Positions 20,256 through 61,834 of a stretch of DNA of 64,000 nucleotides are shown here, piece by piece. The notes beneath the pieces were generated by a model, which saw only the letters and a program-made list of their open reading frames with translations, was not told the origin of the DNA and did no database searches. The DNA is from a virus: UHGV virus genome UHGV-2111131. The stretch is one strand, 5' to 3'. How positions within the stretch are numbered: position 1 is the stretch's first letter; each line of letters opens with the position of its first letter. The position numbers and the translations under genes were made by a program.

Positions 20256-21845
20256 TTACTTAATAAGCAGCGGTACGCCCTGGATACGACGGGCTACGCC
20301 AGTCGGGCAGCAGGCCCAGACTACTTCCCATTTATCGAATTCCGCCTGCGTAACTTTCAGCACATACGGTTCTGTACCGTCAGCATCGGGATCACGAGGA
20401 GCCACCAGAGCGCCGGAGGCGACAAAGCGATCTAAAAGTTTGGTCATCCCTTTAGTCAGGCCAGCCGCAGTAATACCGTCCGGGCTATGCTTCATCTGTC
20501 GTGCTAACTGGACAAAGAAACGGCTGATTGCATTCATCAGGGATGGGACGTGCTGGAAGTGCAGATAGTTATCCTGCGTGCAGCAAGTTAAAGCATCGTC
20601 GATGATCATCTGGCCAGAGCTGCCAACAGATACTTTATTGAGACGGCCCTTGACCATTGCTTCTTCGTCCGGTGTATCTTCCGGATACAGCGGTTGAATT
20701 GACGCACGAGCAATGACGGCACGTTCTTCACCAGCCGGTGAGTAATGCCAACCGCCTACATCAGAGTTTTTCTTGACGCCATGAGCTTTCGCCGCATACG
20801 CCACGCCAGACAGACCAAAGACCACACGGGATTGGGTCCATTTGTCTTTGCAGGAGAACGGGTAGTGATAGACAGAACAGCTTACATAATCGGTACCAAG
20901 TAAACCGGTACCCTCAACAGCTGTTAGTGCTTCTGCGTACCTTAATGTCGGTTTGACATCAAAGAAGCCATCAATCAGGCGATCTGCACAGATTTTACCT
21001 AATGCGGTGATAGCCGCATTGTCATAGCAGCCCAGGCCAAGAACAGCGGTGTACATGTACGGCGCATTGTTCAGCACTTTCACCGCACGCAGGTACGCAG
21101 CGGTTGAGATTTTCGACTGATCACCGTTGGTACCACCAGTGAACGCCAACGATTTTTTGTTTGTTACTTTCGCTGTAGAAATCAGATCTTCATTAACAAC
21201 CGCGCGCAGATATTTAGAACGGGCTTCCAGAGCCGTAGGCAGATAACACAAGCGGCCCATGTCATCTTTCGCTTCTTCCGCCAAAGACACAGTGTGTGTC
21301 TCCAGGGTCGTTACCACACCAAGCGAAGTCGTCTGGGTCAGTTTTAAGATGAAGCGTTCATTACCCGCGCTGTCCGCTGTTGCCGTTTCGATGGTTAACT
21401 CACGGGTAGGTGAAATACACGGATCACCATCATCAACGTAGATAGCAAATGCTTCGCCGCTATCAAGTTCAATTTCAGAACCGTATGGCAACGCACTGTA
21501 AGCCGGTTCGCCTGATTCATCGAACATAATAATCGGGAACTTCGCATCATCCGGAACAGCACGGACAACATAACCAGACGTTTGCTGAATAGCTTCGTAC
21601 ACATGGCGAATTGGTTCGAACTGTGAGCCGGAAGACGGCTTCAGCGGTTCGCCGAGAACATCTTCGTAATTGGACTCAGTAACCGCAAGAACAGTAAACG
21701 GCTTGCCACGCGCAAATACGCCAATACCAGCCCATAAGCTGCTATTTAATGCAACACCGGTAGATAACGTCGCATCGGCATTGATCGGGCTAACCGCGAC
21801 GCTGGATGCATTACCTAATGACTGTTGAATTGAATATTGAGACAT
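20256..21845 (-). CDS. Tail sheath protein (position of P1 gene 22)
   Basis: 529 aa; N-terminal pattern G.F.RGKPF...VT....EDVLGEP resembles contractile sheath N-termini. Confidence 0.6.
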   Translation of the reverse strand: MSQYSIQQSLGNASSVAVSPINADATLSTGVALNSSLWAGIGVFARGKPFTVLAVTESNYEDVLGEPLKPSSGSQFEPIRHVYEAIQQTSGYVVRAVPDDAKFPIIMFDESGEPAYSALPYGSEIELDSGEAFAIYVDDGDPCISPTRELTIETATADSAGNERFILKLTQTTSLGVVTTLETHTVSLAEEAKDDMGRLCYLPTALEARSKYLRAVVNEDLISTAKVTNKKSLAFTGGTNGDQSKISTAAYLRAVKVLNNAPYMYTAVLGLGCYDNAAITALGKICADRLIDGFFDVKPTLRYAEALTAVEGTGLLGTDYVSCSVYHYPFSCKDKWTQSRVVFGLSGVAYAAKAHGVKKNSDVGGWHYSPAGEERAVIARASIQPLYPEDTPDEEAMVKGRLNKVSVGSSGQMIIDDALTCCTQDNYLHFQHVPSLMNAISRFFVQLARQMKHSPDGITAAGLTKGMTKLLDRFVASGALVAPRDPDADGTEPYVLKVTQAEFDKWEVVWACCPTGVARRIQGVPLLIK

Positions 21846-21905
21846 AACTTTCCCTGTTATGCGCCCCGCACGGGGGCGCTATGTTAAACGGAGAACTTCC
21901 CGTGA

Positions 21906-23633
21906 TTACTCAGAGTCACCGGCATCAATCATGTTACCGGTCAGGAAGTTAATTCCGCCATTTTTGGCCATAGTCAGAGTTACACGCGTGAAGTAGTCAG
22001 CGCCGTTACGTGGGTGCATATCGTTGATAGCCGAACCCCACAGAGTGGTTCGGTTGACTAGTGCCGGGGTGGTCGGATGCTGGAATGGGACAGCCGGGAC
22101 TGCATCACCAGTTACGAAGCCCGCTTTGCCCGGATTTTCATCACGGACGTAGCACAGCACATCCATTGGGCTGAACTGGATACCGTCGGCGGTCAGGTTC
22201 GTACAAATACCTTCTGGTACTTCGAACACTTTGACGTTGCCGAACAGAGTGCCAATGTAGTGGACGTATGGGGTCTGGATGTAATCTTCTGCTGGCTGGA
22301 AGAAATCCTTCGGCAATTGTTTGAAGAAAGATGCCGCATCAGCACCGGCATACATCCCCATCGCACCAGAAGATTTAATACGCTCAATAATACCGCGATA
22401 TACCGTCTGGAATTTGCCTCGAATGATGGTTGCCCACACATCAAAGGACTGGTTAGCTGGCAGTGCAATATCAAAGGAGTCGGTCGCAAGAGTTCGCCAA
22501 ATCATGATACGAAGACGAAGCATATCTTGCTCATGGGACAGGTATTCCTTCAGGGTGCGGAACTGTAGGGAGCCAAGATCCAGACCAAATTCACGCTGTG
22601 CTTCATACGCCGCCTGTACCGTGTGCTCAGCCGCGATGACGAACTGGTTTGGGAACAGGGTGTAACTCTTCATTTCGTGGTTGATAAGTGGGATCAGCTC
22701 AGGAGCTGCTTCTATATTGATCTCCACCTCAATGGCGATCTCAGTGCCTTTATCCGGCGCTTTGGAGAACGACAGGGCAATCTGACCAACGTTGTAATTC
22801 AAAGAGCAAGTAACAGTGATTTGTTCGCCTGCTTTGTTATTGAATGTGTGAAGCAGAGTGCCGGAGCCGTTATCAACAACAGACTTAATACGGTTAACGT
22901 AGATGTTTGTGCGACCTTTGCGAATCGGGACATTCTGACCTTCGACATCTTCCATCTTGAAGGTTGCAGTTTTGCTGGTGCCGTCGGAGCTTGCAACCAG
23001 CACATAGCGGCGGCGCAACTGGCTGTACACGCCAACGGATTGCATGTCCAGAACATCACCAATAGCATAAGAGCCAAAAGAAGAACCCGCTACGTTAAAG
23101 ATTTCATAGATTTCGGACTTGTCACGCGTAACCGGAATGAATGTACACGCATCAGCGGTAGCTGCCCCCAACTGAACAGGCAGGATCATCGCCAGGAATA
23201 AAGGCAGACGCATAACCCCGTCAGAAACACTCATCATCTCTGCCGCGACTGATTCCAGCATCGCTTTATTGGTGGCATCCATGCTATTGCGGGTGGACTC
23301 AATCAGGCAGTTTTCCAGCGTCTGGTGGCAGGAGGCCAGAATTTCCGGACGTGGCATAGATTTATGTGTTGCGGCGTAGTCAGCCAGTGCACTTGCCCAC
23401 GCTGTAGCGATTTGAGCGGTGGCATTATCAGAGATACCCGCAAAAATTGGGTCTTTACGTGCAGCTTCAAGGATAGATGCGGCACGCGCGGCATCATCTT
23501 TAATGAATTGGTTATCAGTACCGAACTGCGCAGTGCTTGCCCAGCCAAGCACAGCTTTAGAGCGTTTTGCGATATCTGCAATACGATTCTGGTATTCGCG
23601 TAAGTTACTCAATTTACTCTTCCTTAAACACAA
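21906..23633 (-). CDS. Putative major capsid protein (position of P1 gene 23)
   Basis: 575-aa ORF (TTG at 23633; alternative TTG at 23612 after AAGGAAG); first gene after parS. Confidence 0.5.
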   Translation of the reverse strand: MCLRKSKLSNLREYQNRIADIAKRSKAVLGWASTAQFGTDNQFIKDDAARAASILEAARKDPIFAGISDNATAQIATAWASALADYAATHKSMPRPEILASCHQTLENCLIESTRNSMDATNKAMLESVAAEMMSVSDGVMRLPLFLAMILPVQLGAATADACTFIPVTRDKSEIYEIFNVAGSSFGSYAIGDVLDMQSVGVYSQLRRRYVLVASSDGTSKTATFKMEDVEGQNVPIRKGRTNIYVNRIKSVVDNGSGTLLHTFNNKAGEQITVTCSLNYNVGQIALSFSKAPDKGTEIAIEVEINIEAAPELIPLINHEMKSYTLFPNQFVIAAEHTVQAAYEAQREFGLDLGSLQFRTLKEYLSHEQDMLRLRIMIWRTLATDSFDIALPANQSFDVWATIIRGKFQTVYRGIIERIKSSGAMGMYAGADAASFFKQLPKDFFQPAEDYIQTPYVHYIGTLFGNVKVFEVPEGICTNLTADGIQFSPMDVLCYVRDENPGKAGFVTGDAVPAVPFQHPTTPALVNRTTLWGSAINDMHPRNGADYFTRVTLTMAKNGGINFLTGNMIDAGDSE

Positions 23634-23672
23634 GGCACTTGTGTGAATCCCTTTTCGGAAGAGATTTTATTG

Positions 23673-23693
23673 AAAGTCACTTGTTGACTTTCT
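23673..23693. promoter_or_regulatory. Possible late promoter: palindrome GAAAGTCA-cttgt-TGACTTTC
   Basis: 8-bp inverted repeat about 20 bp upstream of a TAAAAT -10 on the minus strand. Confidence 0.35.
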
Positions 23694-23747
23694 CGTGACA
23701 AGCAATTTTTTTATTTTTTTCGGGAGTAGGGGAGGAAGGTAAAATAC

Positions 23748-23835
23748 AAGGTGAAATCGTGGCGATTTCACCTTGAAATTTTAGATGGATTTACTTTAAA
23801 AACAGTAGGTTAATAGTGGAATTTGAATGGCGAAA
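23748..23835 (-). other. parS: parS partition site (centromere)
   Basis: Heptamers ATTTCAC/GTGAAAT and hexamers TCGCCA around an AT-rich bend region, directly downstream of parB. Confidence 0.7.
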
Positions 23836-23837
23836 GT

Positions 23838-24839
23838 TTAAGGCTTCGGCTTTTTATCGAGGCTCTTTCTAAGGATATGCCCAATCATCCTGTCGAGTTC
23901 TTCCTGTAGCTCTTTTGAAAGTCGATTAAACTCATAAGAAAATGCACGGCCTTTCACGCGCTTCCTTGCAAAGCGATCCTTGTCCTCAAATTTCCATAAT
24001 TCAGTAACTACGGACTTATCTTTAGAACCTTTATCCGTGAGTAGTGAGGCTTCCTTTGTTATCAAGCGCAGGATTTTATTTTTAACTTCATCTTCGGCCA
24101 TTTCTTCAATGGATAAGATGTCGTTTATTTCCGGGGATATGTTTTGAATAAGCTGATCAAACTCTAAATTCTTGTTCCCCATTTCGTCGCCAACAGCACA
24201 AAGCGTTTTGTAGTCCGAAAAGGTTAATTCCGACTGCACAGGGAAAAGGGCGACTAATTCTTCCGGAGCACTCGCTGCCTGGAGAGCACGCGTGACTTTC
24301 GCCTGAGACAGCCCTTCCTTGGCTGCAATATCCTTCTGACTCATCCCATCATTTTTCATTCGCATCAAACGCAGACCTATTTCTCGAATGCTGTGCTGCA
24401 ATGCTGTCTGAACGTCTTTCGCTAAATTTTGCGCTTCCTGAACGCTGATCTCCTGGTCCGTGACTAAAACCCGCAACCCTACGTTCTCTAAGATGGCAGA
24501 AGCTCGACGCCGGGAACCATCCAAAATTTCAATTTTCCCTGTAGCCCGTCTAACACCTATTGCAGGGTAAAATTGCTGATGCTTAATAGTGCTTCGGATA
24601 CTTTTTAATGATTTTGGCGTAAGAGATGCCTGGTCACGCCCGTTGTTATGCTGATCAACAAAGGTATCGCTTTCTACCTGGTTCGGAGGTATTACCTCTT
24701 CAATAAATGTGGCCTGGCGACCAGTTGATAACTTGAATACCTGCTCGACTCGATCGCCAGAGGATGAAGAACTATCAAATCCGCTTAATATTGAAGGATT
24801 AAGGGTTCGCCCAATTGTTGGTCTGTTTTTCTTTGACAT
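23838..24839 (-). CDS. parB: ParB centromere-binding protein
   Basis: 333 aa (P1 ParB length); ParB/Spo0J-like HTH region. Confidence 0.9.
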   Translation of the reverse strand: MSKKNRPTIGRTLNPSILSGFDSSSSSGDRVEQVFKLSTGRQATFIEEVIPPNQVESDTFVDQHNNGRDQASLTPKSLKSIRSTIKHQQFYPAIGVRRATGKIEILDGSRRRASAILENVGLRVLVTDQEISVQEAQNLAKDVQTALQHSIREIGLRLMRMKNDGMSQKDIAAKEGLSQAKVTRALQAASAPEELVALFPVQSELTFSDYKTLCAVGDEMGNKNLEFDQLIQNISPEINDILSIEEMAEDEVKNKILRLITKEASLLTDKGSKDKSVVTELWKFEDKDRFARKRVKGRAFSYEFNRLSKELQEELDRMIGHILRKSLDKKPKP

Positions 24840-24855
24840 GGGGGTTTCTTACTCC

Positions 24856-26052
24856 TCAGTTAGATCTGATAAATTCAATACGGTCAAAAACTGCTTTAGC
24901 AAAATCTTCCGCAGCAATTCGCGCGTTCTTCAATGCATCAGCACTACCAACATACGTTGCCGGGTTAGCTGAAATAACAGTGTCAAAAGACTCGCCGCAG
25001 CGTTCAAAACCGTCAAGGCGAGGGAGGACAACATCAAGCATATCCCCACCGAACACTTCTTTAGCCAGGCTATGGCAATACTTATGGTCTGCCTTGTTAC
25101 TCAACTTGGACATAAAACCAATGTTAGTTGCAAGCTGACACTCGCAGCCTTCATCCGAAATGAGTTTCACCAACTCAGGAAGACGGGCAACGTATTTAAG
25201 CGATGAGTGGAAATCAACCGTTGCAGGCGGCAGAGGTGTAAACAATATATTGGCCGAGGCCAAAGCATTTTTCAGGAAGGCGTCAAGGTGAGGACCACTA
25301 TCAACGAGGATAAAGTCATAATCGCTCTTCAGCTTATCAATCACATTTTCTTTCAGGACTGCATGGATATTCTGACCCGGTAGATGCTCATTGCACAGCT
25401 CTCTCCAATCGGATGCAATAAAGGCATCGTCAATCGACGCAGGCATAACGTCAACCCCAGGTACAACAGAAGGAACAATAAACTCCTCTAACAGCTCTTC
25501 ACGGCTTACATTCTGCAACATAGCCTGTGCAGATGTTGCGTTTACGATACCAATAGAGTGTTTATGGCTTAAAAACATCGTTGCTGAAGATTGCGGATCA
25601 AGGTCAATAACCAGAATCCTTAAATCTTCCATCAGAAGATGAGGGTGAGCACGCATTGCATGCGCCAGAGAAACCGTCGATACAGTTTTTGACACACCGC
25701 CTTTAAGATTGGAGATGAAAATCACATACGCTTCGCTGTAGCGATCCCGGTATTTTGGCACTCCGCGATGTTCATATATGTCAATGATGTTCTGTATTGA
25801 CATCGCATATTTCATTGAAGAGCCAGCAGGGCGTTTATCGAAAACATAACCCTTTTCTTCCATTTCACTTACGGCATAGTCAACGTTCGCACGAGTCAGT
25901 AGAGGCAATTTCGCCAGTGCCGCTTTCGCATAGACCTGGTAAAACTCGTTCGCGTGTAGCTCATCCTTTTGCAACTGTACTTGTTCAGTCAGAACATTGA
26001 GCATTCTATTTGCTCTTTGAGCAACCTTGTGAAGCTGGCTGGAATCACTCAT
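24856..26052 (-). CDS. parA: ParA partition ATPase (type Ia)
   Basis: 398 aa (P1 ParA length); deviant Walker A KGGVSKT; long N-terminal extension. Confidence 0.9.
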   Translation of the reverse strand: MSDSSQLHKVAQRANRMLNVLTEQVQLQKDELHANEFYQVYAKAALAKLPLLTRANVDYAVSEMEEKGYVFDKRPAGSSMKYAMSIQNIIDIYEHRGVPKYRDRYSEAYVIFISNLKGGVSKTVSTVSLAHAMRAHPHLLMEDLRILVIDLDPQSSATMFLSHKHSIGIVNATSAQAMLQNVSREELLEEFIVPSVVPGVDVMPASIDDAFIASDWRELCNEHLPGQNIHAVLKENVIDKLKSDYDFILVDSGPHLDAFLKNALASANILFTPLPPATVDFHSSLKYVARLPELVKLISDEGCECQLATNIGFMSKLSNKADHKYCHSLAKEVFGGDMLDVVLPRLDGFERCGESFDTVISANPATYVGSADALKNARIAAEDFAKAVFDRIEFIRSN

Positions 26053-26182
26053 CGAAAGTCATCCTTTATGCTGTATTTTTGAATTTAATTAAAAATGCTG
26101 CATAAAATAATAATGTATGCGTAGATGCTTGTACATAGCATTCTCTGCGTGTTTGGTTCATTTTGCGCGATTGAGAGTTACA

Positions 26183-26205
26183 AGGAGGGCACAAAAAAGC
26201 CCCGT
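26183..26205 (-). terminator. Intrinsic terminator between the inserted two-gene unit and the par promoter
   Basis: GCCCC-gttca-GGGGC hairpin followed by T6 on the minus strand. Confidence 0.55.
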
Positions 26206-26220
26206 TCAGGGGCATCAGTG

Positions 26221-26481
26221 TTATTTGCTAAGAGCAGCGAATAATCGTTCGAAATCGATAGTATCTATAGCACGCGTAAGCGCCGGAAGTTCAGCCTCAA
26301 AGTACCCATGTCGATCGTAAAAGAAGGGACCGAAGAGCGAGGCATGTTGGATTCTACTTCGCCACAGCCCGGACACACAGTTAAGCCCATTACCGGCTAA
26401 AAGGCTAAAAAACTTCTCTGGATTATCGTGGTAAAGCTGGGAATCAATGGTGGCGGTTAACTCTTCCATAGGGAAGCACAC
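26221..26481 (-). CDS. Hypothetical protein
   Basis: 86-aa ORF downstream of the T5orf172-like gene. Confidence 0.35.
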   Translation of the reverse strand: MCFPMEELTATIDSQLYHDNPEKFFSLLAGNGLNCVSGLWRSRIQHASLFGPFFYDRHGYFEAELPALTRAIDTIDFERLFAALSK

Positions 26482-26502
26482 CCGCCCTGTATCCCAGGGA
26501 TA

Positions 26503-27030
26503 TTAAGTCCGAAGCATAAACATTGCTTTCAGCAATTCACATTGAGCGCGGATCGCGTCCGGTTCATAGCCAGATATGGAGACATAAGCCACGTCCCTCA
26601 TTCCTGCGTCATCTTTGAAAGTCACGATAGAAGTAACATCCAGCTCTTTTTCGAAAGAGCAAGCAGCATCTACTGGACGCTGAAGTAAATCATTCGACTT
26701 AATGCGCTCGAGAATCCCTCCCCACATATCATTTAGATATTCGATATGAGCCAAAACCTTATCAAGACACTCTCGTGTAAACCATTCAGTATGCCCGCCA
26801 CCTGCGCTTTTCTCCCACGGCGCATTCCAGGGGAAAAAGGTTGCGTGTAAAGCCCGCTCAAGATTAACCATTGCCAAACGCGTACCACGATAGACCCGTG
26901 AAAGCGCAAAATCGGGACTCACTTGTAGCCCTTTAAACCGTGTCAATGGACCACATGAAATGCCGATTATAAAAGTATCTCCGTTCTCTGGCACCAGAAC
27001 GTAGAGGTAGTGTTGTTTCTCTTCTTGCAT
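26503..27030 (-). CDS. T5orf172 / GIY-YIG-like domain protein
   Basis: 175 aa; YLYVL...IIGIS ... ERALHATFF ... GGHTEWF motif pattern. Confidence 0.55.
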   Translation of the reverse strand: MQEEKQHYLYVLVPENGDTFIIGISCGPLTRFKGLQVSPDFALSRVYRGTRLAMVNLERALHATFFPWNAPWEKSAGGGHTEWFTRECLDKVLAHIEYLNDMWGGILERIKSNDLLQRPVDAACSFEKELDVTSIVTFKDDAGMRDVAYVSISGYEPDAIRAQCELLKAMFMLRT

Positions 27031-27059
27031 ATCAATACCACTGCTTGATGAGAACCGCG

Positions 27060-27325
27060 CAAATGTTGACTATGCGCGAAGGTTAATGTGAATAGTTGAC
27101 TATGCGCGATGTGACTACAGTCAAAAGTTGACTGTAGTCGATTTAACTCCACCAAAGATCGACTATGTAAGATATTGTCGGGAGAAACGTTGACTATACG
27201 CGATGAAATGCCCCTAAAAGCCATCTCAATAGCGACTTGCAGAATATTGACGCCAGCAAAAATCCACCAGCGTCAACGAATGTCGCCTATAGTCAACTTC
27301 TCGCTATCGCATATAGTCAATATTA
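27060..27325. repeat. incA-type iteron array (RepA binding sites, both orientations)
   Basis: At least 8 copies of core GTTGACTAT(G/A)CGCGA, direct and inverted, downstream of repA. Confidence 0.65.
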
Positions 27326-27369
27326 TGGATTGCGCTTATGGATCTGGAAGCCGATTTTCCTGCCGTTTT

Positions 27370-28218
27370 TTATCTCTGAAAATTTAAGATATTCAATAGC
27401 TTAACGCTATTTTGCACGCTAACGGATGATTTGAGATTAAGCCTCGCTCTAAGGCGCTCAATGCTGACAGGTGCCGGGTTGGCGGGTAGAGCCTCAAAGA
27501 ATGTATACAGTACCTTGGCCGTCTCTTTGCGCCCTAGTTTATCCAGCATCTTCAGCTTCAGGATTCGCTTATAGTCAACATAGTAAAGTTCAGATAGCTG
27601 TTTCTGCGGCTGGATCTCGATAACATCAAGCTCGGTATTCAGGCTGCTATATGCCAACAAGTTGACGTTAATGTTATTGAGATGACCTTTTGCCGCCGGG
27701 AAGCGGAATTTGACAACTGTCTGCTGAATGCGTGTCAGAGAGTCATCAATACTTTTACGGAACGCCTTTGAAAGGCGCTTACGTGGATAGCCGCATCGAT
27801 CGGCAAACTCGGAGAATGGCAGGGTGATTATGCCGTCATCATCAGGTGCGTAGTCAAACAACGCGGAGGTTATGCCCACCCACACCTTAAAATCAGTATC
27901 CATATCCAGGCGTGGACCATGAATTTCAATTCCCTCATAGCCTTCCTGCTCAACAATTTTGAGGCTTGATAGTTCTTCAGTTGCGTTCGTTGTGTTTGTT
28001 GTAACTGACGATCCGCGACGTAGCGCCACATTGGTAGATTTTAAGGTTGGCACAAACACACCTAAGCGCAACAAAGCGATGGGTTGTATAGTGCTGTTGT
28101 TATTGGGCTTCAGGCTGTGGATTTCTCCTGTATTTCCTGCAACTTCTTCAACGCTAAGGAAGCCTTTACTTTCTTCCGGCATCACGGTTTCTCCATGTGT
28201 GGCGCGGCCTGACGTCAA
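27370..28218 (-). CDS. repA: RepA iteron-binding replication initiator
   Basis: Flanked by iteron arrays; likely true start is the ATG at 28182 (GGAGA RBS), giving 270 aa. Confidence 0.8.
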   Translation of the reverse strand: MTSGRATHGETVMPEESKGFLSVEEVAGNTGEIHSLKPNNNSTIQPIALLRLGVFVPTLKSTNVALRRGSSVTTNTTNATEELSSLKIVEQEGYEGIEIHGPRLDMDTDFKVWVGITSALFDYAPDDDGIITLPFSEFADRCGYPRKRLSKAFRKSIDDSLTRIQQTVVKFRFPAAKGHLNNINVNLLAYSSLNTELDVIEIQPQKQLSELYYVDYKRILKLKMLDKLGRKETAKVLYTFFEALPANPAPVSIERLRARLNLKSSVSVQNSVKLLNILNFQR

Positions 28219-28224
28219 TTTGGA

Positions 28225-28480
28225 TGGCTGTTATCAACAGCTGTGAATATTCAGGCTCTAAAATCGCTTACAGTCAATGTTTCTGTCGCGTATAGTCAAC
28301 AATAAATCGCGTGCAGTCAACAATAAATCGTGCACAGTCAACATAAAATCGCGTATAGTCAATGTTGATCCCATTTCAAGCCAGTAATGACGCGGCTTAC
28401 AGCGATCCGGGATCTTCTTTGGATCTTCCTAGGTTCTCTTTAGGATCTGTTTATTGGATCTATGCTGTGGATAAGTTGAA
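28225..28480. other. Plasmid origin oriR: DnaA boxes, incC iterons, GATC cluster
   Basis: DnaA-box-like TTATCAACA (28231) and TGTGGATAA (28466); 4-5 iterons in 21-bp register (28270-28365); six GATC in about 95 bp (28367-28460). Confidence 0.6.
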
Positions 28481-28516
28481 TAAACCGGCCAACAAAGCCG
28501 GTTGGAAGGAAGGGTA

Positions 28517-28909
28517 TTATTCTACGCTTTCGATAAGAAGACCATGTTCATAACATTTAAGCTCATCGCCTTCGTACAGGAATTGGTATCCAATACCACC
28601 ATTTTCATGGACATTAGGGAATAACTCATAACTCACTGAAGAGCAAATCACACCAATGCAGCGATCAACGCCTTCTCGTTCTTCAGTGCTGAAAAAATCC
28701 TCTTCGGTAAGGACATGAGTACATTGCTCATCAGCATAGGTCGGAAATACATGCTCGATGCAATCCGGGTGTTTTAAACCAAGCTGATCGGCAAGCTCGA
28801 AAGCATGACGGTATTGTTCAGATCCTGGCTTGCCAACAGTGATGTGCTCAATTTTGTAGATTGAAGTTGCTTTGTTGATAGTTTGCTTTACTGTTACTTT
28901 ATCAGACAT
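28517..28909 (-). CDS. Hypothetical protein (position of P1 UpfA)
   Basis: 130-aa ORF. Confidence 0.5.
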   Translation of the reverse strand: MSDKVTVKQTINKATSIYKIEHITVGKPGSEQYRHAFELADQLGLKHPDCIEHVFPTYADEQCTHVLTEEDFFSTEEREGVDRCIGVICSSVSYELFPNVHENGGIGYQFLYEGDELKCYEHGLLIESVE

Positions 28910-28920
28910 AAAAATCCCTT

Positions 28921-29253
28921 TTAGTTACCTCTGATAGCGCGGTTGTAATCATTAACGTTGCGATTCTTCCTGTTAATCCCCATCAGCATCGTTTCTGTAT
29001 CGAGGATATACGCTGGCAGATCATCAAAATATTCACTGCTAAACTCTGGCATCCTGCACATAAATGCACTTTTGGGGGCAGGGTGGTTAACCTTTGTCGG
29101 CGTCGGCGTTAAATTCGCTGATCGACTCCCGGAGCAACCGCTGAGTGTCAGCAGGAATACGCTGGCGAACATTACCCGCCGCAACAAGTTGTTTCTGAAC
29201 TTCAGCTTTTCGTTCCATTTGCCTGTCAGCATACTTGGCTTGTTCTGATTCAT
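28921..29253 (-). CDS. Lipoprotein precursor (Mlp-like)
   Basis: Lipobox LLTLSGCSG; true start probably the internal Met; overlaps ppfA-like ORF in another frame. Confidence 0.6.
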   Translation of the reverse strand: MNQNKPSMLTGKWNEKLKFRNNLLRRVMFASVFLLTLSGCSGSRSANLTPTPTKVNHPAPKSAFMCRMPEFSSEYFDDLPAYILDTETMLMGINRKNRNVNDYNRAIRGN

Positions 29254-29509
29254 TTTTCACTTCCTGGCTGTGAAAATGTTGCTCTGCTTTGTTCATCGTC
29301 TCAATGGTCTGGTTAAGATCCATTATTGACTTATCACGTTCCTTAACAGCCTGATCAAGACTGCCAATTTTCTCCATGGCTTGCTTTAGCTGATGACGTT
29401 CCCACGCAAACCCAGCACCAACAAGTGCGCAAATCAGAACAAGAACACCAGTAGCAGCAAGTTTCTCCTTCAAAGACAAAGCTGTTTTTAACGTAGAAAA
29501 GAATGACAT
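29087..29509 (-). CDS. Membrane-anchored periplasmic protein (PpfA-like)
   Basis: N-terminal TM segment then coiled-coil region; start taken at internal MSFFSTLK. Confidence 0.5.
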   Translation of the reverse strand: MSFFSTLKTALSLKEKLAATGVLVLICALVGAGFAWERHQLKQAMEKIGSLDQAVKERDKSIMDLNQTIETMNKAEQHFHSQEVKNESEQAKYADRQMERKAEVQKQLVAAGNVRQRIPADTQRLLRESISEFNADADKG

Positions 29510-29548
29510 GTCTTCCTCCTGAAGAAAAATTATCAATGAAGTCCTTTG

Positions 29549-30337
29549 TTACCGTGCCGCTTTGTTTAATTCATCAAGAACAGAATCAGGAACCAAAGCG
29601 GCGACTGCGCTGGCTGTGCTGGCCTTATTTGCTGATGCTTCCGCAAGCGCGGTACCGATAGCATGGTTATAAGCAGTTATGGCTACGTTGGCGCTTTCAT
29701 TCGCTCGTTCATACTGCTGTTGTAACGCAGTTGTGGGTGCTGTTGTCTGGTTGAAAACAACCCCAAACTGTTCAGTTGCTACTTTCAGAGATTCAATTTG
29801 CTCTTCTGTTAGTGCTGGTGGGGGAGTGGCAGTGCCGCCGCCTGAACCAGAGCCTGACGAGCTTCCTGAGCCAGTGTTAAGGGTCTGGTTAATCTCCCCC
29901 ATAGCAGCGACTAAACTTGATGTATTAAGCGCGTTTACAGCGTCCTCAAGCGATTTAGTAATAGTCACATCACCAATGGCAATAGAGATCGGCAGTTCTG
30001 AAACTTCTCGCTCATTAGCACGACAGTAAACATCCCAACCAATATCGAGTTGAAGGAGCATTGACAGATCAGCATAACCAGCCAACAGGTCCGCGTGCTG
30101 AGTTGCCAGCCCTCCAATATTCGTTAAACCGGTTGCGGTTGTTCTGATCGTTGAAACATAGCTGGTAATAGTGTCGGGATAGACAATTGTATCCAGAATT
30201 AATCCGGTCAATTCTTCTGCAAGCAGTTTTGCTGTGTTAGCACTGTTTCGTGCCGATGTTATGGCACCAGGTGTTTTCATCCCACCGGCGGCGGCCAATT
30301 TTTTATATGCGGATAACTGGTAGTCTTTTTCCAGCAT
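29549..30337 (-). CDS. Ala/Thr-rich protein with Gly/Ser linker (position of P1 UpfB)
   Basis: Start taken at MLEKDYQ, leaving an 8-nt gap to the upstream gene. Confidence 0.55.
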   Translation of the reverse strand: MLEKDYQLSAYKKLAAAGGMKTPGAITSARNSANTAKLLAEELTGLILDTIVYPDTITSYVSTIRTTATGLTNIGGLATQHADLLAGYADLSMLLQLDIGWDVYCRANEREVSELPISIAIGDVTITKSLEDAVNALNTSSLVAAMGEINQTLNTGSGSSSGSGSGGGTATPPPALTEEQIESLKVATEQFGVVFNQTTAPTTALQQQYERANESANVAITAYNHAIGTALAEASANKASTASAVAALVPDSVLDELNKAAR

Positions 30338-30345
30338 GATATCTC

Positions 30346-60640: not shown

Positions 60641-61834
60641 GTGACCTGGGACGATCACAAAAAGAATTTTGCTCGCCTGGCGCGAGATGGTGGTTACACC
60701 ATCGCACAGTATGCCGCCGAGTTTAATCTTAACCCTAATACCGCACGTCGTTATCTCCGTGCCTTCAAAGAAGACACCAGGACTGCGGACAGCCGCAAGC
60801 CAAATAAGCCAGTCAGGAAGCCACTAAAAAGCATGATCATTGATCACTCTAATGATCAACATGCAGGTGATCATATTGCGGCTGAAATAGCGGAAAAACA
60901 GAGAGTTAATGCCGTTGTCAGTGCCGCAGTCGAGAATGCGAAGCGCCAAAATAAGCGCATAAATGATCGTTCAGATGATCATGACGTGATCACCCGCGCC
61001 CACCGGACCTTACGTGATCGCCTGGAACGCGACACCCTGGATGATGATGGTGAACGCTTTGAATTCGAAGCTGGCGATTACCTGATAGATAACGTTGAAG
61101 CGCGGAAGGCCGCGCGCGCTATGTTGCGTCGGTCCGGGGCCGATGTTCTGGAAACCACTCTTCTTGAAAAGTCTCTTTCTCATCTCCTTATGCTGGAGAA
61201 CGCCAGGGATACGTGTATTCGCCTGGTGCAGGAAATGCGCGATCAGCAAAAGGACGATGATGAAGGTACTCCGCCTGAATACCGTATCGCGAGCATGCTA
61301 AACAGCTGTTCCGCGCAGATAAGCAGCCTGATCAACACCATTTACAGCATCCGGAATAACTATCGAAAAGAAAGCCGGGAGGCGGAAAAGCACGCTTTGT
61401 CTATGGGGCAAGCTGGCATTGTTAAGCTGGCATACGAACGAAAGCGTGAAAATAACTGGTCAGTGCTGGAAGCAGCTGAATTCATCGAGGCGCATGGCGG
61501 GAAAGTGCCGCCCCTGATGCTGGAGCAAATCAAAGCCGATCTGCGTGCTCCGAAGACCAATACCGATGATGAGGAAAGGCAAACAGCCGTCGGTGGCCCT
61601 TCTCTTGAAGATCTGGACAAAGTTGCGCGAGAACGGGCCGCCAACCGCCGCGCCGATGCCGCATTGTGGATTGAGCAGCGTAGGGAAGAAATCGCCGATA
61701 TCGTTGATACAGGCGGTTATGGAGATGTTGATACTGAAGGTGTATCAAACGACCCATGGCTGGAACAAGACCTGGACGAAGACGAGGAGGAAGACGAAGA
61801 AGTTACCCGCAAGCTATACGGGGATGATGATTAA
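60641..61834 (+). CDS. pacA: Terminase small subunit PacA
   Basis: 397 aa (P1 PacA length); pac site lies inside the gene. Confidence 0.85.
60832..60995. other. pac packaging site: 4 + 3 TGATCA/GATC hexamers
   Basis: GATC clusters at about 60834-60873 and 60963-60992 flanking an ~90-bp spacer. Confidence 0.65.

Follow-up and report, generated by a model that had tools for sequence, protein, structure and literature searches.

The enzymes I-TevI and those of the Seg type from phage T4 have an N-terminal GIY-YIG catalytic domain, a flexible linker and a C-terminal DNA-binding domain, and free-standing GIY-YIG homing genes drive co-conversion of the markers that flank them (discussed in PMC8263062). 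Phages also have free-standing putative homing genes of the T5orf172 family (GIY-YIG superfamily), for example gp53, gp121 and gp130 of phage ICP1 (Barth, Dunham & Seed 2023, PMC10448857). The signatures by which such genes are recognized are variable presence, instability, a site near essential genes or exchange boundaries, and domain shuffling; zinc-finger DNA-binding domains (CapR, DUF723 or DUF4397) are found in 87% of T5orf172 homing genes (PMC10448857). A different arrangement is seen in Odn (ICP1 Gp88), in which a T5orf172 nuclease is fused to an initiator-like DNA-binding domain and cuts at iterons. Odn carries its DNA-binding domain at the N-terminus; this domain has 42% identity to the PLE RepA_N domain, and the target of the enzyme is a foreign satellite (PMC8263062).

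Here we describe a T5orf172-family gene, referred to below as X, in the window, that is, the whole 64,000-nucleotide stretch of UHGV virus genome UHGV-2111131 that was analysed. The window is a P1-like phage-plasmid with the minus-strand order incC iterons, repA', incA, X, terminator, Ppar, parA and parB (Table 1), and its replicon cassette is of the p0111 type, the alternative to the IncY cassette of P1. The gene lies where the sequence-only reading had placed it, between the incA-type iterons (27061-27330) and Ppar/parA, its start codon 31 bp downstream of the end of the last incA iteron. The terminator that the same reading assigned to it is real, although 26183-26205 was about 8 nt off: the hairpin GCCCC-TGAAC-GGGGC and its U6 run occupy 26189-26213 (-11.9 kcal/mol, z -2.1). 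An iteron-like ATTCGCTTATAGTCAAC (82% identity to the reference iteron, family D2) is also found at 27563-27579 within the repA' coding region. In one relative, L055 (NZ_CP043337.1), 30 bp are missing at the equivalent of window 27065-27094, exactly one incA repeat unit, so the copy number of incA iterons differs among cassettes.

Table 1. Coordinates of the features of the replicon region in the window.
Feature	Position	Strand	Remark
Gene X	26221..27030	-	Single 269-codon frame plus stop; T5orf172/GIY-YIG family; pseudogene in the window
Premature stop TAA (Lys176 to stop; AAA in relatives)	26503..26505	-	Alignment with RCS47, 673R5
Missense K21I, 'FKIG' motif of the T5orf172 domain	26968..26970	-	K21 invariant in 37 aligned sequences
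Missense G223W, C-terminal domain of X	26362..26364	-	G223 identical in P0001 and P0004
N-terminal domain of X, residues 1-105, T5orf172/GIY-YIG nuclease fold (predicted)	26716..27030	-	
C-terminal domain of X, residues 128-269, predicted alpha/beta winged-helix	26224..26649	-	Interrupted by the stop codon
Intrinsic-terminator-like hairpin and U-run, 3' of X, ahead of Ppar	26189..26213	-	
incA-type iteron array, core GTTGACTATGCGCGA, both orientations	27061..27330		Repeat families D2, D4, D5, inverted pairs
repA', p0111-type initiator	27370..28182	-	
incC-type iterons, 21-bp spacing, in origin	28259..28383		Repeat families D1, D3
Exchangeable replicon cassette (incC iterons, repA', incA, X, terminator)	26155..28377	-	blastn against P1
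Ppar promoter, P1-type, directly outside the cassette	26107..26135	-	Promoter prediction and P1 annotation
parA	26052-24856	-	
parB	24839-23838	-	

The interval had been read as a two-gene unit. Its two ORFs, 26503-27030 (175 aa) and 26221-26481 (86 aa), are present on the minus strand with the motifs quoted for them, but they share one frame of 270 codons with a single in-frame TAA, and relatives carry one CDS. Translation of 26221-27030 gives the TAA at 26503-26505 as the sole internal stop; RCS47 and most relatives have AAA (Lys176) in its place, within a single 269-aa CDS annotated 'GIY-YIG nuclease family protein'. PHROG 2876, a 269-position profile, matches the window ORFs collinearly (1-175 and 184-269) and an intact copy over 1-269. 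A 61-mer centred on the TAA occurs exactly in 3 of 382 plasmid records and with a one-base difference in 373 of them, the stop being missing from ~98% of plasmid copies, which have AAA (Lys) instead. The K176* allele is common to pSvP1_F, p2_115106 and the ETEC1731 plasmid, and none of 44 IMG/VR loci has it.

That the locus nevertheless encodes two distinct working proteins, one of 175 aa with the T5orf172 domain and a partner of 86 aa, would agree with existing annotation: RefSeq lists the 175-aa product (WP_001154681.1) in three plasmids with the stop, one of the three K176* records also has a hypothetical protein downstream of it, and for pSvP1 Venturini et al. speak of '2 orfs inserted between repA and parA' (PMC6906374). 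However, the gap between the ORFs consists of the TAA and seven codons in the same frame, and the stop interrupts the predicted C-terminal domain directly past a modelled helix at 157-173. Homologues of X at 25-44% identity are single ORFs, while the 86-aa ORF begins with GTG, matches only positions 184-269 of PHROG 2876 and has no family of its own. Given this sequence evidence, we consider the two-gene reading effectively refuted.

Besides the shared stop, X in the window has the private substitutions K21I, A30T and G223W. K21I is found neither in 40 IMG/VR loci nor in the three K176* plasmids, and comparison with the IMG/VR loci and the K176* plasmids makes G223W private to the window as well; G223 is kept between the X lineages P0001 and P0004, which are 44% identical. 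Judged by the shared stop together with private changes at conserved residues, the window copy is a pseudogene in continued decay. The neighbouring repA' has a private 25-bp deletion near 27401 that frameshifts its last 34 codons, RepA' ending in ...SVQNSV and then KLLNILNFQR before the stop, where relatives have IRKAMKDLEAIEYLKFSEIKNGRKIGFQIHKRNP and a stop. The deletion is in none of the 40 IMG/VR loci, RCS47 or the three plasmids, and with a 100-nt query for the deletion region every E. coli genome match among those listed spans 125 nt. With the stop in X and the frameshift in repA', both cassette genes are damaged in the window.

Canonical P1 does not contain X: of the interval, NC_005856 matches just window 26060-26148. 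The sequence-only reading had incA abutting the par promoter in P1, so that the two ORFs looked like an insertion between incA and par. Neither point survives comparison. P1 has 213 bp of non-coding spacer between incA and Ppar, and the whole block 26155-28377 is substituted for the incC-repA-incA of P1. In blastn against P1 the window is homologous over 21060-26154 and 28378-31876 only; homology ends 66 bp past the X stop and restarts within oriR, and 26155-28377 stands in place of 1.49 kb of P1. Since the entire incC-repA'-incA-X block is swapped, X is not a simple insertion. The P1 replicon (IncY: incC-repA-incA, then par) agrees with the window in gene order, in the left part of oriR (DnaA box, Dam sites) and in the par operon, ParA and ParB being about 99.7% or more identical; it differs in its iterons, in its RepA, just 42% identical to RepA', and in having the spacer at the place of X.

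A remnant of X in the spacer would have shown that P1 lost the gene, but blastn (word size 7) and tblastn (E<=100) of the 213 bp found no X remnant and nothing meaningful, and none is annotated; X may have been lost from P1 or gained by its relatives. The spacer (61276-61488 of the P1 record, ~5056-5268 of L001) has no detectable kinship with any X lineage, nor any detectable relationship to the sequence 3' of X. Among plasmids, PLSDB holds repA' in 399 records and X in 390-395 (~98-99%), and of 5426 complete E. coli genomes 415 have the cassette. A repA' probe matches these genomes at 418 places, eight of them on chromosomes and not on plasmids, where P1-like elements may have integrated or been mis-assembled.

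In protein collections of 5.8 billion and 1.84 billion entries, searches returned only four full-length lineages of X (P0001, P0004, P0009 and P0011), 25-44% identical to each other. P0001, the window type, has 1241 members and the other three are rare; P0009-type X is absent from PLSDB, where its N-domain gives cross-matches to the P0001 type only. Gene order in the repA-parA interval across P1-like elements likewise speaks against an insertion, all four lineages occupying the same slot in the order RepA, iterons, X, ParA, ParB. One of them, L005, has a RepA 83% identical to that of P1 and yet carries X (P0009). Given that three further P1-like lineages, L005 included, carry X between the iterons and ParA, canonical P1 appears to be the exception in having no X.

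The cassette is exchanged on conserved backbones. L004 and L005 are near identical in ParA (100%) and gp23 (99%), but their RepAs are only 41% and their X proteins 28% identical; homology between the two is lost ~170 bp upstream of repA and regained 63-84 bp past the X stop. Two independent swaps, window/P1 and L004/L005, thus have breakpoints 63-84 bp downstream of the X stop. From L004/L005 and the synteny comparison, we infer that RepA, iterons and X travel as one cassette of which X is always the terminal gene. Between the window and L004, identity is 43% for X, 83% for RepA and 89% for ParA. Exchange also seems to occur inside the gene: L005:8065-8295 and L007:5157-5387, the T5orf172 cores of the respective X alleles, have 76% nucleotide identity across 231 nt, whereas the X proteins are 38% identical overall and the flanking repA genes have no nucleotide similarity, which suggests domain-level exchange of N-domains between X alleles. 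A 197-aa protein of an E. coli plasmid (P0005, 108-kb contig) joins an unrelated ~78-aa N-terminus to X residues ~105-224 and is, by this composition, a rearranged or chimeric copy of X.

Distant relatives of the N-domain behave differently. The five that we sampled lie in assorted mobile-element cargo regions and none adjoins rep, so the idea that this T5orf172 subfamily is generally tied to plasmid rep genes was dropped and the linkage to rep is peculiar to the four P1-like lineages. The closest non-P1 relative with a C-terminus of another kind is P0012 (212 aa), from the metagenomic phage contigs L009 and L010; its neighbours, in a lysis/replication region of the phage, are HNH_3 endonuclease genes. 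Read by eye, its C-terminal ~70 residues are a candidate MarR/ArsR-type winged helix.

The T5orf172-like assignment of the 175-aa ORF is borne out by Pfam: PF10544 matches it at 21.8 bits (E=2.8e-4; gathering cutoff 20), and the intact proteins score 27.5 bits (P0001, E=4.8e-6), 25.1 bits (P0009) and 26.7 bits (P0011). The catalytic core (Tyr, Arg, Glu) and a K-I-G motif are present in the family, Y10, K21, G23, R31, E58, E82 and F84 being the same in all 37 sequences of the family and subfamily alignment, with K21I in the window copy. From this 37-sequence alignment, whose C-domain part holds four sequences only, AF2 gave a confident two-domain model (pLDDT 84.6). In the model the N-domain of ~105 residues adopts a GIY-YIG alpha/beta fold, and structure matches in BFVD are T5orf172 proteins, among them ICP1 ORF88 (Odn; E 1.3e-3), as well as a 'Hef-like homing endonuclease'. 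The N-terminal ~105 residues of X are accordingly predicted to fold as a nuclease domain of the T5orf172/GIY-YIG type that keeps the catalytic Tyr, Arg and Glu. By sequence, X matched no solved structure in the PDB at E<=1 and no NCBIfam model.

For the C-domain (~140 residues) the closest fold is the WH1 winged-helix of iteron-plasmid initiators, with modest scores and at the level of fold only. We therefore treat a Rep WH1-type winged-helix domain as a prediction from the model, a lead in which homology is unproven. The C-domains alone matched no Pfam family, an hhalign comparison of the X and RepA families reached a probability of 0.1, and blastp of the C-domains against five RepAs found nothing below E 0.3. 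A recent RepA-derived chimera of the kind seen in Odn is thereby ruled out at the sequence level; the likeness of fold remains.

X is often broken. Of 44 IMG/VR loci, 35 have an intact gene and 9 (~20%) a disrupted one. No fewer than four independent events account for the broken copies, which include stops (codons 68, 112 and 228), a truncation near codon 100 and a fragment at a contig end; by position, the disruptions lie at codons 55 (the contig-end fragment), 68, 112, 119 and 228. The codon 112 stop is common to five loci, and L029 has its own independent stop at codon 228. X of 673R5 has two frameshifts, and the clusters P0002, P0003 and P0007 are truncated forms. Among intact alleles pN/pS is 0.34 (33 non-synonymous and 27 synonymous changes), as compared with 0.00 for repA' (1 and 36) and 0.00 for parA (1 and 71). 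By these measures X is a fast-evolving, weakly constrained and dispensable gene, whose catalytic motifs are still kept across deep divergence.

How does this locus compare with the described nucleases? The putative homing genes of ICP1 have the conserved Arg and Glu of X, and like X combine a nuclease with a separate terminal domain, are free-standing, lie near essential genes or the edge of an exchanged block, frequently suffer stops and frameshifts, and share domains between alleles at the nucleotide level. X differs from the T5orf172 homing genes of phages in having no zinc-finger, its C-domain being modelled as an initiator-type winged-helix-like fold, and it belongs to the maintenance module of a temperate phage-plasmid, whereas the ICP1-type genes are found in structural and replisome operons of a lytic phage. 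With I-TevI and the Seg-type enzymes X would share the domain architecture, as modelled, and there is no detectable sequence kinship beyond the superfamily; X has a different putative DNA-binding module and is in no intron. Odn and X both appear to pair a T5orf172 nuclease with an initiator-resembling domain, in X at the level of the predicted fold, and X can be likened to Odn in being tied to replicon type, co-varying with RepA and iterons. Unlike that of Odn, the putative binding domain of X is C-terminal and without sequence similarity to the local RepAs, and what it resembles is a WH1 fold as found in Rep_3-type initiators rather than RepA_N. Moreover, Odn attacks a foreign satellite, whereas X adjoins the iterons of its own replicon.

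Our main reading, to which we give a probability of about one half, is that intact X is a homing-endonuclease-like or origin-directed nuclease that aids the spread or retention of its replicon cassette. We take X as homing-endonuclease-like because it matches the published signatures (PMC10448857): its presence varies, with none in canonical P1 and a copy in a relative with an 83%-identical RepA; it degenerates recurrently through stops, frameshifts and truncations; it sits at a boundary of recombinational exchange beside essential maintenance genes; and its nuclease domain appears to be exchanged between alleles. The weak constraint on X fits this reading too, and among nucleases of known function Odn is the nearest precedent. 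X would then be a free-standing site-specific nuclease whose C-domain recognizes DNA in or beside the replicon of a rival P1-like plasmid that lacks X or has a different cassette, or alternatively docks on RepA. The GIY-YIG domain would nick or cut the rival DNA, which would then either receive X and the adjoining repA/iteron cassette through recombinational repair or simply be destroyed. Expression would probably come by read-through from the autoregulated repA' promoter: no sigma-70 promoter is predicted upstream of the X ATG, and no promoter or terminator between repA' and X, which makes co-transcription plausible. Such a gene would not be needed for plasmid maintenance and would decay once fixed, as in the window. 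However, active homing genes typically come and go among close relatives, a pattern that p0111 cassettes do not show, since ~98-99% of them have X, and the pN/pS of 0.34 is also compatible with a mildly useful accessory function.

X might instead be a replicon accessory factor that binds iterons or heterodimerises with RepA' via the Rep-WH1-like domain and modulates initiation, in handcuffing/copy-number control or in incompatibility, with the nuclease secondary or making a site-specific nick. We regard this as rather unlikely. X is present in nearly all repA' cassettes (~98-99%), but ~20% of its copies are knocked out without sign of plasmid loss, and canonical P1 and other IncY replicons function without it. 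It co-varies with RepA type, always directly after incA, and is probably co-transcribed with repA', yet it diverges far faster than RepA (43% against 83% identity, window vs L004), and its pN/pS of 0.34 stands against ~0 for repA' and parA. The best structural analogues of the modelled C-domain, Rep WH1, are dimerisation and iteron-contact modules, but the best-conserved part of X is the set of catalytic residues of the nuclease domain. A more specific proposal, unlikely in our estimation, makes X the plasmid counterpart of ICP1 Odn: a Rep WH1-like domain would target the iterons/origin or RepA of a rival, and cutting would lead to exclusion or to conversion of the cassette.

The sequence-only reading had also pointed to the defence and anti-defence contexts in which T5orf172 domains recur. 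That X is an effector of this sort, acting on its own in anti-phage defence or anti-defence as cargo of the phage-plasmid, is decidedly unlikely. Nucleases are common conflict effectors (PMC8263062), X evolves rapidly, and the distant N-domain relatives do lie in mobile-element cargo, one near Mrr- and WYL-domain genes and others beside toxin-antitoxin or HNH genes; X itself, however, is tied in four lineages to a replicon cassette and not to a variable cargo hotspot or a defence island, has no partner gene and is often inactivated. Nor does it match any defence-system protein model of PADLOC-DB v2 at E<=1.

X is already in RefSeq annotation, and two papers mention the gene without a function. 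What appears to be new is that it is a single gene, that its family of four lineages is tied to the P1-like replicon cassette, that it sits at the cassette boundary, and that its C-domain has an initiator-like fold. The annotation is corrected accordingly: the '2 orfs' or 'gp57 unknown' are one GIY-YIG-type gene, often a pseudogene, and the laboratory reference P1 is without a gene that is usually present here in its natural relatives. P1-like phage-plasmids are widespread, carry resistance genes and have two replicon types, IncY and p0111, on near-identical backbones; a nuclease-family gene that always borders the exchanged block is an obvious candidate for the driver of replicon-module exchange. 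If the Rep-like targeting domain is real, nucleases would have taken over DNA recognition of the initiator type a second time, independently of Odn. If X does act like Odn, it would provide a mechanism for switching between IncY and p0111 and would be a weapon of a new type in plasmid incompatibility.
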